From the NCBI GenBank assembly GCA_951406725.2, contig OX597822.1:64294001-64358000 (forward strand): DNA of 64,000 nt, written 5' to 3'. Positions 9,618-64,000 of this stretch are shown piece by piece. This stretch comes from Octopus vulgaris (lineage: Eukaryota). Both the position numbers and the translations under genes were made by a program. Below the pieces are notes generated by a model. It had not been told where the DNA came from and made no database searches. It saw nothing but the letters and a program-made list of their open reading frames with translations. Every line of letters starts with the position of its first letter. The first letter of the stretch is position 1.

Positions 9618-10083
<466 letters not shown>

Positions 10084-11554
10084 TATTTCTTTTAAATTGC
10101 CATAAAGGCATTACACAGAGGGGGCACTACAACACTCGTGGGACATATAACAATTAAAAATAAAATATGTTATAATGAATGAACATGAAAATGCACATGA
10201 AGAACAAATTAAAATATGATAATATGAATGATATCTGAAAATGATATTATGAAGAGTGTGCTACTCACCTCACACTGAGTAACACAACTCGCTGCCTCTG
10301 GGTCCTGAGTCCTTTTTCTCTTTTCGTCCAATCCTTTTTTCCTTTTCACTGTCACTTAATGATAACATTCTCTCCGTCATGCATTCATAACCTTTTTCAC
10401 CGGGAGTGGGGTCTTCTAAATTTTGTGGTGTCTGTTCTTTCTTTTTCTTTTTTTTTCTTGAGGGGAAATGGGGTGGGTGTGTTTGGTGTCTGTATGGGGA
10501 GGGTGGGTCTGAGTGGTCTTGGATGGGATGGGGTTGGACTGGGGTGCCACATCATACTCAGTGTCTTTTCTTTTTTTCCTCTTTCTCCTTTTGCGCTCTG
10601 CAATTTTCCATTCTTCCTCTTTTTTATCGTTTCCTTCGTCTGTTTTGTCTTCCTCTCTTTTCTCTTCTGTCTCTGCAACTATATCCTCAGCCGTAGTCCT
10701 TCGTAGAGGGCAGTATGCTCTAATGTGGCCCTTTTGGCCACATTTAAAACAACGTGGTACTCTGCCCTCTACCCACACCCTCAGCACGATTTCCCCCAGC
10801 GTCACAGTCTCTGCCAAGTTCTCGAGTTGTCCCTCCTCCGTCTGAATAATTAACTCGAGCGTCCTTCCTTTCCACCCTCCTTCTTCTGTTTCTGTGGCTT
10901 GGAGGACAGCCACCTTTTCCTCGCTTCCAACAAGGACAGCTGCCGCTACCCAAGCCACATTTATATCAGGCGGAATTCCTTCTACCCTTATCTTGGAAGT
11001 CCTTCTTCCAAGATACGTGGGTAGAAGGACCATTTCCTTCGTCTTTACCGTTTTGCCCGCCAGCCTCCTTGCCTCCTCCTCTGTTCTGAACTGGACTACC
11101 ATTGTCCCATATTGGCATCCTCTTGTCATGTATATTACTCCGTTGGATTCCTCCTTTACTGCCTTTTCTATTTTCTCTATTTCAATTAGGTCGATCTTCT
11201 TACTCTTTATCGAGTAAACTTTGTATATGACCGTTCTTTTTATGCCATCCATTATTCTTTGTGGCAGTGACAACGTCACGTTGCCGCCCACTTTCTGCAC
11301 CATTTTTCTATGCTCCTTCATTCTTGATAAATCCACCTCTTTTCTCTTCACCTCCACAGCTTCTGCGAAACTCTTCATGTTCTTCAAATATTCATCCATG
11401 CATTCTACTGCTCTCAGCAGCTCCTCCTCTGCAGAAGACAGCTCAGACTCGCTAAGGTCCGAGTACATTACTAACCTCAAAGCAGCAAAAGGAAAAACGT
11501 CCGACTCGCATACAAACGACAAACCAAATGCACTATGGGTAACCGGAAGCAAGC
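10084..11554 (-). mobile_element. ~1.47-kb non-autonomous L1/Tx1-type non-LTR element (ORF1 only) inserted in the SINE-A head
   Basis: TSD 10067-10083 / 11555-11571 (1 mismatch); 5' end GCTTGCTTCCGGTT..TCGGACGTTTT; 3' tail CCCCCTCTGTGTAATGCCTTTATGGCAATTTAAAAGAAATAA; no RT. Confidence 0.85.
10416..11468 (-). CDS. Gag-like ORF1 nucleic-acid-binding protein, 350 aa, single CCHC zinc knuckle (CFKCGQKGHIRAYC)
   Basis: Uninterrupted ORF from the first ATG inside the element (MYSDLSESE); CX2CX4HX4C, basic WKIAERKRRKRK motif; homologous to the ORF at 63363. Confidence 0.85.
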   Translation of the reverse strand: MYSDLSESELSSAEEELLRAVECMDEYLKNMKSFAEAVEVKRKEVDLSRMKEHRKMVQKVGGNVTLSLPQRIMDGIKRTVIYKVYSIKSKKIDLIEIEKIEKAVKEESNGVIYMTRGCQYGTMVVQFRTEEEARRLAGKTVKTKEMVLLPTYLGRRTSKIRVEGIPPDINVAWVAAAVLVGSEEKVAVLQATETEEGGWKGRTLELIIQTEEGQLENLAETVTLGEIVLRVWVEGRVPRCFKCGQKGHIRAYCPLRRTTAEDIVAETEEKREEDKTDEGNDKKEEEWKIAERKRRKRKKRKDTEYDVAPQSNPIPSKTTQTHPPHTDTKHTHPISPQEKKRKRKNRHHKI

Positions 11555-11596
11555 TGGTTAGCAAGCTACTTACCACACAGCCACTCCTAGGCCTAT
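11555..11596 (-). mobile_element. SINE-A 5' head fragment
   Basis: Reverse complement ATAGGCCTAGGAGTGGCTGTGTGGTAAGTAGCTTGCTAACCA. Confidence 0.85.
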
Positions 11597-11984
11597 GGAT
11601 GGAAGCACTCCGTCGGTTACGACGACGAGGGTTCCGGTTTAACCGAATCAACGGAACAGCCTGCTCGTGAAATTAACGTGTAAGTGGCTGAGCACTCCAC
11701 AGACACGTGTACCCTTAACGTAGTTCTCGGGGATATTCAGCGTGACACAGAGAGTGACAAGGCCGGCCCTTTGAAATACAGGTACAACAGAAACAGGAAG
11801 TAAGAGTGAGAGAAAGTTGTGGTGAAAGAGTACAGCAGGGATCATCACCATCCCCTGCCGGAGCCTCGTGGAGCTTTAGGTGTTTTCGCTCAATAAACAC
11901 TCACAACGCCCGGTCTGGGAATCGAAACCGCAATCCTATGACCGCGAGTCCGCTGCCCTAACCACTGGGCCATTGCGCCTCCAC
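11597..11984 (-). mobile_element. Full-length tRNA-headed SINE, family C, with 11-bp TSD CCTAGGCCTAT
   Basis: A-box TGGCCCAGTGG, B-box GGTTTCGATTCCC; tail GTCGTAACCGACGGAGTGC shared with 21450 and 53530; TSD 11586-11596 / 11985-11995. Confidence 0.9.
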
Positions 11985-12019
11985 CCTAGGCCTATAAAAT
12001 AATAATAATAATAATAATG

Positions 12020-24659: not shown

Positions 24660-25228
24660 AGAGTGGGACCAGTCGATTAGATAGACCTCAGGACGCAACT
24701 GGTATTTAATTTATCGACCCCGAAAGAATGAAAGGCAAAGTCGACCTCGGCGGAATTTGAACTCAGAACATAAAGACAGACGAAATACCGCTAAGCATTT
24801 CGCCCGGCATGCTAACATTTCTTATTTCTTTATTGTCCACAAGGGGCTAAACATAGAGGGGTCACACAAGGACAGACAAAGGGATTAAGTCGATTACATT
24901 GACACCAGTGCGTAACTAGTACTTATTTAATCGATGAAAGGCAAAGTTGACCTTGGCGGAATTTGAACTCAGAATGTAAAGGCAGACGAAATACCTATTT
25001 CTTTATTACCCACAAAGGGCTAAACACAGAGCTGACAAATAAGGACAGACATAGGTATTAAGTCGATTACATCGACCCCAGTGCGTAACTGGTACTTAAT
25101 TTATCGACCCCGAAAGGATGAAAGGCAAAGTCGACCTCGGCGGAATTTGAACTCAGAACGTAGCGGCAGACGAAATACCGCTAAGCATTTCGCCCGGCTT
25201 GCTAACGTTTCTGCCAGCTTATCGCCTT
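24660..25228 (-). mobile_element. SINE-B tandem/nested trimer
   Basis: Three cores; tail junctions at GAAATGTTAGC and GGTATTTCGTC. Confidence 0.9.
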
Positions 25229-31489: not shown

Positions 31490-32646
31490 AACTAGTACTT
31501 ATTTCATTGACCTCCGAAAGGATAAAAGGCAAAGTTGACCTCAGCGGAATTTGAACTCAGAATATAAAGAGCCGGAAGAAATGCTTCTGAACATTGTGAC
31601 TGATGCGCTAACGATTCTGCCAGTTCGCTTAGTAGGAAAAAACTCTTTTCTACTCTAGGCACAAGGCCCGAATTTTTTTTTTCTTGGTGTGTGTGTGTGT
31701 GTGGGGGGCTGTCGATTAGCTCAACCCCACTACGCAAATGGTGCTTAATTTATCGATCCCGAAAGGATTAAGGGCAAGGTCGACCTCGGCGGAATTTGAA
31801 TTCAGAACGTAGCGGCAAACGAAATATCTATTTCTTTACTACCCACAAGGGGCTAAACACAGAGAGGACAAACAAGGACAGACAAACGGATTAAGTCGAT
31901 TATATCGACTCCAATGCGCAACTGGTACTTATTTAATCGAACCCGAAAGGATGAAAGGCAAAGTCGACCTCGGCGGAATTTGAACTCAGAACGTAGCGGC
32001 GGACGAAATACCGCTAAGCATTTCGCCCGGCAGGCTAACGTTTCTTATTTCTTTATTGCTCACAAGGGGCTAAACATAGAGGGGACAAACAAGGACAGAC
32101 AAAGGGATTAAGTCGGTTACATCTACCTCAGTGCGTAACTGGTACTTAATTTATCGACCCTGAAAGAATGAAAGGCAAAGTCGACCTCGATGAAATTTGA
32201 ACTCAGAACGTAAAGACAGATGAAATACCTATTTCTTTACTACCTACAAGGGGCTAAACACAGAGGGGACAAACAAGGACAGATAAACGGATTAAGTCGA
32301 TTATATCGACCCCAGTGCGCAACTGGTACTTATTTAAACTACCCCGAAAGGATGAAAGGCAAAGTCGACCTCAGCTGAATTTGAACTCAGAACGTAACGG
32401 CAAACGAAATACTTATTTTATTTACTACCCACAAGGGGCGAAACACAGAGAGGACAAACAAGGACAGACAAACGGGTTAAGTCGATTATATCGACTCCAG
32501 TGCGTAACTGGTACTTATTTAATCGACCCCGAAAGGATGAAAGGCAAAGTTGACCTCGGCGGAATTTGAACTCAGAGCGTAGCGGCAGACAAAATACTGC
32601 TAAGCATTTCGCCCGACGTGCTAACGTTTCTGCCAGCTCACCGCCT
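31490..32646 (-). mobile_element. SINE-B array (about 6 cores, four with Tx1-like tails)
   Basis: Repeated GGCAAAGTCGACCTCGGCGGAATTTGAACTCAGAACGT units with recurrent junctions. Confidence 0.9.
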
Positions 32647-38553: not shown

Positions 38554-39876
38554 TGAGTGAAGTAAAGAATATAGATAGGAAAATACGCAAGCTGCTGAGT
38601 TGTAATAGGATGCACCACCCAAAGGCAGACGTAGATCGCCTTTACCTTCCCAGACCCAAGGAGGTCGAGGCCTGATCCAATTTGAACTAGCTTACAAAAC
38701 AACCACAATTGGACTGGCCAAATATCTCGAAATATCGAATGACTGGATTGCTAAAGCTCGTGGAAAATCACGAGAGACGAAAGAAGCTTCATTCTATTAT
38801 AAAGGAAAGCAAAAAATTTGCTATTGATCTCGTGCAGGATACCCAAACTGAACAACCCGAGGGAAGTACGGCAACTATTGTTGCAAAGAAGGTGAAAATG
38901 ATGGCAACGAAAAAAGCGCACGAGCAATTGGCTGATAGGTGGGAGGAGAAACCTCTGCACGGCAAATATGTGGCCCGCAGCAAACAAGCTGATGTTGACC
39001 AGAAGCAAACCCATCAGTGGCTACGGAGCTCAGGGCTAAAAGCAGAGAGCGAAGGTTTCATCCTGGCTGCTCAAGATCAAAGCCTATTAACCCGGAACTA
39101 CCAGGCCAATGTGATGAAAAATGGAGCAGACCCAAAATGCCGATTCTGCAACGACATGATTGAAACAGTGGACCACCTAATCTCTGGATGTAAAGTCTTA
39201 GCACCAGTGGAGTATAAATTAAGACATGACAGAGTTGGCCAATATCTCCACTGGCTAATAAGTCGGCATTACAATATCAAAACTGCCGACAAGTGGTATA
39301 ATCACCACCCTGAGGCTGTAACTGAAGGAGAAAATGTAACCATTCTGTGGGACTTTCCAGTACATACAGACCGAACCATCAAGGCCAATAAACCAGATAT
39401 TGTTGTGAAAGACCAAAACAATAAAGTTTGCTTATTGATCGACATGAGCATCCCCTGTGATCATAATATCTCAGCGAAAGAGTTTGACAAGCTCAGAAAA
39501 TATAAAGACCTACTCATTGAAATTGAGAAAATGTGGCATCTCAAGGCGGTTACAATACCAGTGATCGTAGGAGCACTAGGAATGATCAAGAAGGGAACCG
39601 AAAATTATATGAGAATGATCCCTGGCTTACCATCCCTGCAAGAAGTGCAAAAGATTGTCTTAACTGGTACATCACACGTATTGACAAGAGCATTGTCGAT
39701 GTGAGAACTGTTGCTGCTCATGTATTTTAATTTAACTTGGAAAAAAAAAAAAATGAATGAACTATTGAGTTTGGTTTAATGGCCTACCAATGTATACTAT
39801 GAGTTTCTTTGCCCTAGGAGTCGGGAAGACACTCGGCAAGAAATGGAAGCAAATTTGAAAGAAGAAAAAAAAAAAG
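38553..39876 (+). mobile_element. R4/Dong-like retrotransposon, 5'-truncated (post-RT region, CCHC finger, RLE, 3' UTR)
   Basis: HPKADVDRLYLP../GGRGL (frameshifted); CRFC..ETVDHLISGC, RHDRV, KPDIVV..LIDMSIP..KLRKYKDL; stop at 39704; (TAA)n on both sides. Confidence 0.9.
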
Positions 39877-51784: not shown

Positions 51785-51916
51785 CTGATCTTCACTTCAG
51801 AGTTCTTTCTGTTGTAAAAATTCGGGACCGAGTTCCGGCTGCTTTTTTACTTACACATTAAATCTTACGGACAGTAAGATATAAAATTTCAAAGTAGTGG
51901 TATTATAAGTATTAGT

Positions 51917-52555
51917 AAGGTGGCGAGCTGGCAGAATCGTTAGGACGCTGGACGAAATGCTTAGCGGTATTTCGTCTGTCTTTACGTTGTTAGTTCAAAT
52001 TTCGCCGAGGTCGACTTTGCCTTTCATCATTCGGGGTCGATAAATTAAGTACCACTTACGCACTGGGGTCGATGTTATCGACTTAATCCCTTTATCTGTC
52101 CTTGTTTGTCCCCTCTGTGTTTAGCCCCTTGTGAGTAATAAAGAAATATATTTAAGGCGGCGAGCTAGCAGTATCGTTAGCACGCCGGGCGAAATGCTCA
52201 GCGGTATTTCGTCTGCCGTTACCTTCTGAGTTCAAATTCCGCCGAGGTCGACTTTGCCTTTAATCCTTTCGGGGTCGATAAATTAAGTACCAGTTACGCA
52301 CTGGGGTCGATATAATCGACTTAATCCGTTTGTCTGTCCTTGTTTGTCTCCTCTGTGTTTAGCCCCTTGTGGGTAGTAAAGAAATAGGTATTTCGCCAGT
52401 CGCTATGTTCTGAGTTCAAATTCCGTCGAGGTCGAACTTGCCTTTTATTCTTTCGGGGTCGATAAAATAAGTACCAGTTGAAGAATTGGGGCCGATGTAA
52501 TCGACTCGTCTCCATCTCCCTCAAGCTGCTCTTATGGCAAACATTTGAAATAATC
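51917..52555 (+). mobile_element. SINE-B array (3 cores)
   Basis: Two Tx1-tailed copies; junction GAAATA|GGTATTTCG at about 52387. Confidence 0.9.
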
Positions 52556-54557: not shown

Positions 54558-55195
54558 GTAGGAGTGGTTGTGTGGTAAGTAGCTTGCCTAAGGCGGCGAG
54601 CTGGCAGAACCGTTAGCACTCCGGGCGAAATGCTTAGCAGTATTTCATTTGCCGCTACGTTCTGAGTTCAAATTCCGCCGATGTCGACTTTGATTTTCCT
54701 CTTTCGGGGTCGATTAAATAAGTACCAGTTACGTCGATGTAATCCGTTTGTCTGTCCTTGTTTGTCCTCTCTGTGTTTAGCCCCTTGTGGGTAGTAAAGA
54801 AATAGATAAGTAGCTTGCTTACCAACCACATGGTTCCGAGTTCAGTCCCACTGCGTGGAACCTTGGGCAAGTGTCTTCTACTATAGTCTCGGGCCGACCA
54901 AAGCCTTTTGAGTGGATTTGGTGAAAGGAAACTGAAAGAAGCCCGTTGTATATATGTATATATACATATATGTATGTGTCTGTATATGTTTGTGTGTCTG
55001 TGTTTGCTCCGCACCAACATCCCTTGACAACCGATGCTTGTGTGTTTAAGTCCCCGTAACTTAAGCGGTTCGGCAAAAGGAGCCCGGTAGAATACCTACT
55101 AGTCTTACAAACATAAGTCCTGGGGGTCGATTTGCTCGACTAAAAGTGGTGCTCCAGCATGGTCGCAGTCAAATGACTGAGACAAGTAAAAGAGT
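54558..55195 (+). mobile_element. SINE-A interrupted in its head by a SINE-B copy
   Basis: TSD TAAGTAGCTTGC(C/T)TA at 54576-54590 / 54807-54821. Confidence 0.9.
54591..54806 (+). mobile_element. Tx1-tailed SINE-B inserted in the SINE-A head
   Basis: Complete head AGGCGGCGAGCTGG to tail GGGTAGTAAAGAAATAGA between TSDs. Confidence 0.9.
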
Positions 55196-62535: not shown

Positions 62536-62567
62536 TGCAGGAGTGGTTGTGTGGTAAGTAGCTTGCT
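62536..62567 (+). mobile_element. SINE-A head (host of tandem insertions)
   Basis: GCAGGAGTGGTTGTGTGGTAAGTAGCTTGCT. Confidence 0.85.
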
Positions 62568-62791
62568 CTGGCACCAGGTAAGTGTGGCCGGATCAAGAAG
62601 TAAAGGTTCTACCCAGATGGCTGGGATCCGTGCCCTACTGTATAATACCAAATTTTAAAAACTTTATATTGTAAATATTATATATATTTTATTGTAATCA
62701 CCAACGTTTTAAGCTACTACACCCTATATGTTTGTCTGTAATTGTATGTCCCCTCTATGTAACGCCTTAATGGCGAATCTTTCATGAAATA
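62568..62791 (+). mobile_element. 5'-truncated Tx1-like 3' end, TSD AAGTAGCTTGCT
   Basis: TSD 62556-62567 / 62792-62803; tail TGTCCCCTCTATGTAACGCCTTAATGGCGAATC..GAAATA. Confidence 0.8.
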
Positions 62792-62807
62792 AAGTAGCTT
62801 GCTAACC

Positions 62808-64000
62808 TCTGAACTGTTCGGACGTGTTTTTTTTGCTGCTCCAGATGAACGTTGTTTCAACGTGAATTGTTGAACTTTCGACTCGACTAAAGGTAGGAAT
62901 TTTGTATTTTTGCGAGCGAAGTGAAGTTTTATTACTTGCATGAATGTTTTTTAGCATTTAATATTTTTTAGCAAATAATAAGGCTCCACTTTGCTCCGGA
63001 TATAATTTTTCTGCCTGTGTCGAGTGAAAAGAAATTGTATTTTTGAAGCGGCATAGTCCGTCTGAAAAAATTATTGTTGAAATTGTCGTTGTGTTGTCCA
63101 CAGATTACCAAGGATTATTTACCAAGGGTTTTACCAACAGTGCATTTGGCCTGGATTACAATTTTTGGCCGAAGAAGTGGAAAAAAAAAGAACTGAATTC
63201 CTTTGTCTGAATTGAACTCTCTTTCTCTGTCTATTATTTATTTGTAAAAACTTTTTTGAACTGCCATTTTTAATTTTATTTCTTCCCTTCTGTTGCATTT
63301 TTTTCATTCTCCTTTCTGTGGCTAATTTTAGTTTATCATTTTGAACTGTTGTATTTTACGTTATGGCAAAGGCAAAGAATTTCACTGTGTGGGAATTAAC
63401 ACCTCCCAAAAAATATTTGCACGAACTCGAGGAAAAGACCGTGGTGTTGAGGACATATTCAAAGTCACTCGACACCATAATGGTTTTTCCGAGAGACACC
63501 ATTGTGAACGAGCTGGTAGACTATATGCCAGCCGTTAAACATATTCAACGGGGAGTCAAATACGCAACGGTATGGTTGCTATTTGACTCCGCTGAAGCAG
63601 CTTGCAAATTTGCAAGCCAGCCCATTGAGGGCGATGAGATTCTGTTTCTCCCCAGTTACAAGGGGGGAAAATTGTTACGTTTATGGGTCTGTGGCCTGCC
63701 GCCCGGCTTTGAGCCCGAGTGGGTGGAAGATTCCATCCGCCGGGGTCTGAGCGGTGGTAGCGCCAAGATCCTGAATGTGAAAATGCAGCCTGCGGCTAAC
63801 TGGGAAGGAGGAAAGGCTACTTTGACTCTGTGGACCCAGTCGGCCAAGAATCTGGTTTTGCCGGACTTCCTGAAGATGGCCGGGTCCAAGTATCCGGTGA
63901 TGCTAGAGGGACGCGCCCTCAAGTGTCACCTGTGTTCGGAGACCGGCCACATTAAGAAGAAATGCCTCAGGGACCAAAGTAGGATCCTGGAGAAGTTGAT
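62808..64000 (+). mobile_element. 5' part of a second L1/Tx1-type element at the same target (runs off the window)
   Basis: Starts right after AAGTAGCTTGCTAACC; 5' motif TCGGACGTGTTTTTTTGCTGCT shared with the 10084-11554 element; ORF1 downstream. Confidence 0.8.
63363..64000 (+). CDS. Gag-like ORF1 (partial, open to the window end) with CCHC knuckle CHLCSETGHIKKKC
   Basis: Manual translation MAKAKNFTVWEL..EKTVVLRTYSK..RGVKYATVWLLFDSAEAA..LFLPSYKG..GLPPG..LEGRALKCHLC.. with no stops; aligns with the 10416-11468 protein; absent from the ORF track because there is no stop. Confidence 0.85.
   Translation, partial: MAKAKNFTVWELTPPKKYLHELEEKTVVLRTYSKSLDTIMVFPRDTIVNELVDYMPAVKHIQRGVKYATVWLLFDSAEAACKFASQPIEGDEILFLPSYKGGKLLRLWVCGLPPGFEPEWVEDSIRRGLSGGSAKILNVKMQPAANWEGGKATLTLWTQSAKNLVLPDFLKMAGSKYPVMLEGRALKCHLCSETGHIKKKCLRDQSRILEKL

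Follow-up and report, generated by a model that had tools for sequence, protein, structure and literature searches.

An ORF1-only non-LTR retroelement family fixed at a SINE head in Octopus vulgaris and its likely Tx1-like helper LINE

The window analysed here, a stretch of 64,000 nucleotides of the Octopus vulgaris genome, contains a non-LTR element which encodes an ORF1 protein and in which no endonuclease or reverse transcriptase (RT) was found, zf-CCHC being the only Pfam match. Very probably, this copy represents a multi-copy ORF1-only family that is fixed at one base of a SINE head and copied in trans by the endonuclease/RT of an autonomous Tx1-like LINE inserted at the same site. The borrowing of ORF2p in trans is inferred from the insertion site, the tail and the arrays that the half-element has in common with this LINE.

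Structure and boundaries of the element

A sequence-only reading of the window had described a unit of about 1.47 kb with both ends and a target-site duplication, composed of a 5' UTR of about 85 nt, a stop-free 350-aa zinc-knuckle ORF1 and a 3' UTR of about 330 nt followed by the family tail. The unit, its open frame and its 3' portion were all recovered at the positions given in Table 1. The start at 11554 on the minus strand (GCTTGCTTCCGGTT) does lie in the 5' part of the element, but the 5' end itself had to be moved outward, which lengthens the 5' UTR.

Table 1. Features of the element and of the interrupted SINE (positions in the window).
Feature	Position	Strand	Basis or remark
ORF1-only non-LTR element, about 1476 nt	10084..11559	minus	5' end moved out 5 nt from that of the sequence-only reading
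5' UTR, 91 nt	11469..11559	minus	target-like bases at its start, carried by the element
ORF1, 350 aa	10416..11468	minus	ORF listing and alignment
First predicted RRM-like domain, aa 68-155	11004..11267	minus	AlphaFold model, structure comparison
Second predicted RRM/ferredoxin-like domain, aa 156-235	10764..11003	minus	structure comparison, Z up to 7.8
CCHC zinc knuckle, aa 240-253, CX2CX4HX4C	10710..10751	minus	Pfam and alignment
3' UTR, 332 nt	10084..10415	minus	ends in the family tail, without poly(A)
Tail hairpin, 4-bp stem and 5-nt loop	10098..10110	minus	common to the element and the autonomous LINE
Target-site duplication, downstream copy, 12 bp	10072..10083	minus	junction comparison across loci
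Target-site duplication, upstream copy, 12 bp	11560..11571	minus	junction comparison across loci
Interrupted SINE head, 5' piece	11572..11593	minus	contains an A-box-like motif
Interrupted host SINE, remainder	9715..10071	minus	more than 10 other copies within the window

The duplication was delimited by comparing junctions at 104 loci, 40 of which had both junctions and 28 of which had downstream SINE sequence (in row L051 the head of a neighbouring SINE was taken as flank). Between the upstream and the downstream copy of the target, 24 to 28 of the 28 loci match at each of positions 1-12, 21 match at position 13, 8 at position 17 and 1 at position 18; at position 4, a variable target base, both sides agree in 27/28. 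Other copies likewise carry the five bases 11555-11559 at their 5' ends, and in all five testable copies with the 5' extension of the window copy the two sides disagree at position 13. These bases therefore belong to the element, and an apparent duplication of 17 bp was rejected because they travel with it. For the window copy the duplication is about 12 bp long.

The description of the element as intact stands for the open frame but not for its very end, since the last ~10 residues, after an A-run, are read in another frame than in the relatives L003, L031 and L032; this change at the C-terminal end is probably due to an indel in the window copy. A DNA search in which the best 40 of 567 candidates were scored gave nine other full-length copies at 91-95% identity over almost the whole length and about twenty further copies, some of them 5'-truncated, at 78-93%. 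When aligned with its nine closest siblings the window copy proved 93.9-96.4% identical, so that it is not a fresh insertion.

ORF1 protein, its copies and selection

The ORF1 frame (11468-10416, minus strand) runs for 350 aa without stops, a length that none of 1000 shuffled element sequences reached. Its knuckle was matched by Pfam zf-CCHC with E=5e-4 at 20.5 bits, slightly below the cut-off of 20.8. An AlphaFold model built from an 18-sequence alignment (mean pLDDT 71.5) resembles tandem-RRM proteins, with 7 Foldseek hits at E <= 0.001, and the best structural match is that of the first domain with the La RRM (Z 8.6, rmsd 2.7, 80 aligned residues), Z values near 8 being rated as middling by the comparison tool. 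ORF1 is thus predicted to comprise two RRM-like domains and one CCHC knuckle. A word-based protein search returned two homologues, both from Octopus bimaculoides, and the Atlas matches were unnamed eukaryotic CCHC clusters at 0.92 and a ZCCHC3-type cluster at 0.90; the excerpts of PMC9004415 make no mention of ZCCHC3. One O. bimaculoides gene model (P0001) combines an ORF1 piece, 55-58% identical, with an array of C2H2 zinc fingers, either through a true fusion or as a chimera produced by annotation.

That the frame is open in the window copy, together with the ZCCHC3-type cluster and the C2H2-fused relative, would also fit a host gene domesticated in the manner of L1TD1, or a family of retrocopies derived from a host gene of RRM+CCHC type. 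Among the 10 closest copies the frame is open through the knuckle in only about 3, as in ordinary decay, so that an open frame in the window copy requires no special explanation; the copies moreover have a LINE tail, a fixed target, duplications and no poly(A), and the ORF is homologous to the ORF1 of autonomous LINEs. A host-gene origin is consequently held to be highly improbable.

At the protein level, 121 ORF1 matches down to 40% identity were obtained from the genome (best 116 of 33,593 candidates scored), and the element breakpoints are common to copies down to about 60% protein identity. The sequence-only reading had proposed that the ORF2-less structure be sought at multiple loci, and had itself named, as the case to be set against it, a sole ORF2-less copy with siblings bearing ORF2. 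The count was made on 81 of 176 loci, the window copy included, with an ORF1 match of >=100 aa at >=50% identity and 1.5 kb of downstream DNA. ORF2 was found within 1.5 kb of ORF1 in none of these 81 close relatives, and the opposing case was thus not seen among them. Two rows first classed as autonomous at >=50% were rejected as short-match artefacts of 23 and 48 aa. The family tail is present in 65 of the 81 loci, followed directly by the target in 54 of the 65; in the other 16 it was not detected by the pattern used.

Between the window copy and other subfamilies, dN/dS is 0.13-0.36 in 15 estimable pairs, and within its subfamily 0.23-0.58 in 3 pairs, the remaining 3 of its 21 pairs being saturated. 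Nine pairs without the window copy gave 0.06-0.39 (seven), 0.70 (one) and saturation (one); dS is above 1 in many pairs, and saturation affects 4 of the 30 pairs overall. Among the ten closest copies, private changes amount to 102 nonsynonymous and 43 synonymous (ratio 0.68) and shared changes to 17 and 12 (0.40), a within-subfamily difference that is not significant (Fisher p=0.27). The estimates show purifying selection on ORF1 between subfamilies, that is in the source lineages, while individual copies decay, and the dN/dS comparison proposed in the sequence-only reading is thereby answered in its favour. No A-to-G excess was present among the private changes of L001-L010 (0-4 per copy). 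The contigs of four putative RNA runs cover the element in short, diverged pieces and were weighed neither for nor against its expression, which is presumed.

Target SINE, autonomous LINE and route of copying

Of 160 exact tails in the genome, second-lineage tails included, 109 have the exact start of the target behind them and 51 do not; a looser pattern of tail plus target gave 984 junctions against 0 in a reversed control. Two SINE variants of roughly equal abundance have 25,711 and 22,517 exact empty heads (>48,000 together), and a target with tens of thousands of copies would amount to a safe-harbour strategy. In the one copy of the host SINE tried, an A-box-like motif is present and the strict B-box pattern is unmatched; ARAGORN reported 0 genes, and an Rfam tRNA match is absent. 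L1-Tx1 elements and tRNA-Core SINEs are reported from octopus genomes in the available text of PMC8967140, which does not show their nesting. Other repeats were noted in the window: one with a tRNA-like head (11597-11985, minus strand), flanked by an 11-bp direct repeat, lies directly upstream of the host SINE, and a SINE of ~217 nt with a related tail hairpin occurs in short tandem stacks at 24823-25100, 31829-32598, 51916-52386 and 54588-54804. The copy at 54588 is inserted in the head of the first SINE, and the head of the ~217-nt SINE is itself the target of other half-elements. Rfam microRNA hits, below gathering scores and on simple repeats, were rejected.

The link to a complete LINE is provided by locus L031, an array that joins the half-element to a full LINE. 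A search with the RT region of the latter returned dozens of copies at 90-98%, and the autonomous copies, of about 5.45 kb, are inserted at the same SINE base as the half-element. One of them (L054) encodes an ORF1 of 467 aa and an ORF2 of 1133 aa with Exo_endo_phos, RVT_1 and zf-RVT domains, and among solved structures compared by sequence L1 ORF2p is closest to ORF2 (E=8e-67 vs 6e-20 for R2). The DNA likeness between the half-element and this copy is essentially limited to the last 43 nt (36/44 aligned); the hairpin has a conserved stem, variable loops and, in 3 copies, a two-sided stem change. The two ORF1 proteins are homologous by alignment, those of 31 autonomous copies being 33-43% identical to that of the window copy. 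A tail motif antisense to the target spans 8-9 nt in autonomous copies and also occurs in a second half-LINE lineage; in the 3' UTR of the window element the longest such match is 5 nt, so that the window lineage does not need the exact motif.

Among sister LINE families with 64-66% ORF2 identity, termination occurs at (TC)n repeats or at a U2 gene. In one of them (L061-L066 and L070, about 65% identical to the helper in ORF2) 7/7 copies examined end in (TC)n; at L069:8345-8538 and its 5' flank, tandem autonomous relatives are followed immediately by a complete U2 snRNA gene (Rfam 178.8 bits), and the initial 14 nt of U2 are found again upstream. RRM/CCHC ORF1s (type I) are linked to Tx1 in the available part of PMC5203782, and the Tx1 elements Kibi and Keno target (TC)n and U2 in that of PMC4494074. 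As the sister families share the targets of Kibi and Keno, the helper is called Tx1-like within the L1 group, a probable placement, none of the 115 ORF2 homologues being a named Tx1 reference. Further LINE sequences were recorded beside these: a tandem array of full LINEs with a 5.28-kb period and at least 7 units (L068, G000:C9:59.2 Mb) and, in the window at 38739-39704 (plus strand), a 321-aa C-terminal ORF2 fragment of an unrelated LINE (zf-RVT E=5e-4). Also in the window, at 62558-64000 (plus strand), a 5'-truncated tail of ~230 nt from the autonomous subfamily of the L059/L151 type occupies the same SINE site and is followed head to tail by an ORF1-only element of the second-lineage type, whose ORF runs from ~63364 past the window edge.

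The youngest autonomous family sits in one SINE variant in 16 of the 17 copies with SINE flank. The window subfamily was found in this variant in 0/7 cases and sits in the other, where the older autonomous copies L152, L154 and L170 are also located, which makes an older subfamily the more likely helper. The helper of the window subfamily was therefore probably an older sibling of the youngest autonomous family of today.

Mixed arrays of half-elements and full LINEs occur at five loci, and since in one of them (L144) the LINE stands upstream of the half-element, movement in cis had to be considered, whereby the half-element would be the 3' part of a read-through RNA from a LINE-led array and its cDNA, captured at an internal target repeat, would yield precise stand-alone copies. 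The repetition of the target at every junction and the RNA-borne target bases at 5' ends agree with such a route. However, the half-element is the upstream partner in the four other arrays (L031, L059, L153 and L163), the window copy and most of its close siblings are solitary or first in their array, and an internal cistron would presumably be translated poorly, a poor fit with selection on ORF1. Movement in cis is thus regarded as unlikely and copying in trans is preferred.

The sequence-only reading had taken the unit for a protein-coding non-autonomous retroelement, and the nine close copies, the consistent lack of ORF2 and the same-site autonomous LINE bear this out. In the mechanism proposed, the element RNA would be translated into its own ORF1p, which, with two RRMs and a knuckle, would likely coat the same RNA and might act as its chaperone. 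The helper ORF2p would likely bind the conserved 3' hairpin/tail, nick the SINE head and prime reverse transcription at this nick, the duplication resulting from a second nick at a distance of 12 nt. At its 5' end the RNA would carry target-like bases that likely anneal to the overhang, giving the frequent precise full-length 5' junctions, and the duplication plus the element 5' end would restore the site, allowing later elements to stack head to tail.

Origin of the lineage and comparison with known systems

The ORF1 trees bear on where the half-element came from. When 92 cores were thinned at 93% identity to 55 rows, the resulting tree placed the 39 rows without ORF2 on one branch with support 100/98. 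In a 22-row tree, with six further rows left out for frameshifts or stops, the window lineage joins half-elements with a different tail (98/96), and forcing it together with three same-site autonomous ORF1s was rejected (AU p=0.0063); the test was run after the first tree, on the opposing case named in the sequence-only reading. A single origin of all half-elements was neither rejected (AU p=0.115) nor established.

These results weigh on the remaining rival, according to which an autonomous LINE has recently suffered an internal deletion, either once or repeatedly, and its ORF1 is just decaying. The element does combine the 5' part of a LINE with a LINE tail, and the private changes of the window copy look neutral. 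Against this stand the absence of ORF2 from all 81 close relatives, the distance to the 31 autonomous ORF1s, the common breakpoints across diverged copies, a between-subfamily dN/dS far below 1 and the AU rejection (p=0.006) of a grouping with same-site autonomous ORF1s. For the autonomous families sampled an internal deletion is refuted, and overall it is scarcely credible.

Among the half-elements with the other tail, some are inserted in a second SINE (6 exact junctions; L033, L121) and others form arrays of 1.7-kb units (L042-L048), while a full LINE at L043 bears this tail type; one ORF1 clade thus has members in the first SINE head, in the second SINE and in long arrays. In addition, a second, distant ORF1-only lineage (~28% identity) occupies the first SINE site. 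The arrays at L042 and L045-L048 are long head-to-tail series of ORF1-only units with many frames open, and seven more junctions follow one another at 2.0-kb intervals at G000:C1:223.69-223.71 Mb. The ORF1 trees are read most simply as a switch to another helper and tail, and suggest that the half-LINE lineage is old. Alternatively, the helper may have replaced its own ORF1, or an autonomous family with a closer ORF1 may lie outside the sample, the genome searches having scored the best 116 of 33,593 candidates for ORF1 and the best 131 of 44,831 for ORF2. A broader reading is put forward tentatively, at somewhat less than even chances, in which an ancient ORF1-only lineage lives on as a hyperparasite, acquiring new helper LINEs and with these new targets through exchange of its 3' tail, a second unrelated ORF1-only lineage having converged on the first site. 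If true, the octopus Tx1-like elements would parallel the HeT-A/TART system at dispersed rather than telomeric sites, and nature would have supplied a test of why a passenger RNA has to come with an ORF1p of its own.

An ORF1 alone, amplification with common ends and duplications, a tail common to an autonomous LINE and ORF1 selection between subfamilies were found here, as in ORF1-present non-autonomous LINEs. L1-derived elements carry a poly(A) tail and insert in a dispersed manner. The analogy with mammalian HAL1 drawn in the sequence-only reading applies to lifestyle but extends neither to ORF1 type nor to site specificity: unlike HAL1, the octopus element lacks poly(A), has a fixed SINE target and stacks head to tail, and a Transposase_22 ORF1p (coiled coil, RRM, CTD) with poly(A) and dispersed insertion, as in HAL1 proper, is not what was observed. 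In the available portions of PMC5753468 and PMC5786205, HAL1 is likewise non-autonomous, encodes ORF1p only and has multiple origins, which is paralleled by at least 2 separate ORF1-only lineages at one octopus site; its ORF1 is of the Transposase_22 type and that of the octopus element of the RRM+CCHC type, type I (PMC5203782, in part).

According to the excerpts of PMC5786205, HeT-A (Jockey), HAL1 (L1) and Ag-Sponge (CR1) are all ORF1-present non-autonomous LINEs, the proteins of which are suggested to multimerise with those of the partner. HeT-A and the other telomeric Jockey elements of Drosophila that have ORF1 alone resemble the octopus element in being ORF1-only, in depending, presumably also in octopus, on the ORF2 of other families, in forming head-to-tail arrays and in that ORF1-only lineages spawn new ORF1-only families (PMC13534243 and PMC5786205, in part). 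HeT-A, however, belongs to the Jockey clade and to chromosome ends, whereas the octopus system is L1-group/Tx1-like and uses a dispersed SINE with its >48,000 exact empty sites. Ag-Sponge, a CR1-derived bipartite element with ORF1, is of another clade, and the excerpts of PMC5786205 report no target specificity for it.

With the Tx1 clade the octopus system shares an APE endonuclease and L1-group RT, a type I ORF1 and sequence-specific insertion with U2/(TC)n relatives. In the available text of PMC4494074, Tx1L in Tx1D, Tx1-Mar with SINEU, Keno (U2) and Kibi (TC)n all insert into other repeats, share their site with non-autonomous passengers and show tandem insertions around the duplication, as here; the passengers there are non-coding SINEs, whereas those of octopus encode ORF1 and have a SINE head as target. 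No Tx1-derived ORF1-only or SINE-head-targeting family was found in the literature searched, Repbase, subscription papers and supplements being outside this search. The class of element is already known from HeT-A, HAL1 and Ag-Sponge, and the site-specific Tx1-like case is an addition to it, a repeat family assembled from known parts. As half-element and helper share only ~40 nt of tail, the pair may delimit the smallest RNA signal that suffices for site-specific retrotransposition in trans, and it makes testable why ORF1p stays in cis when ORF2p can be borrowed.
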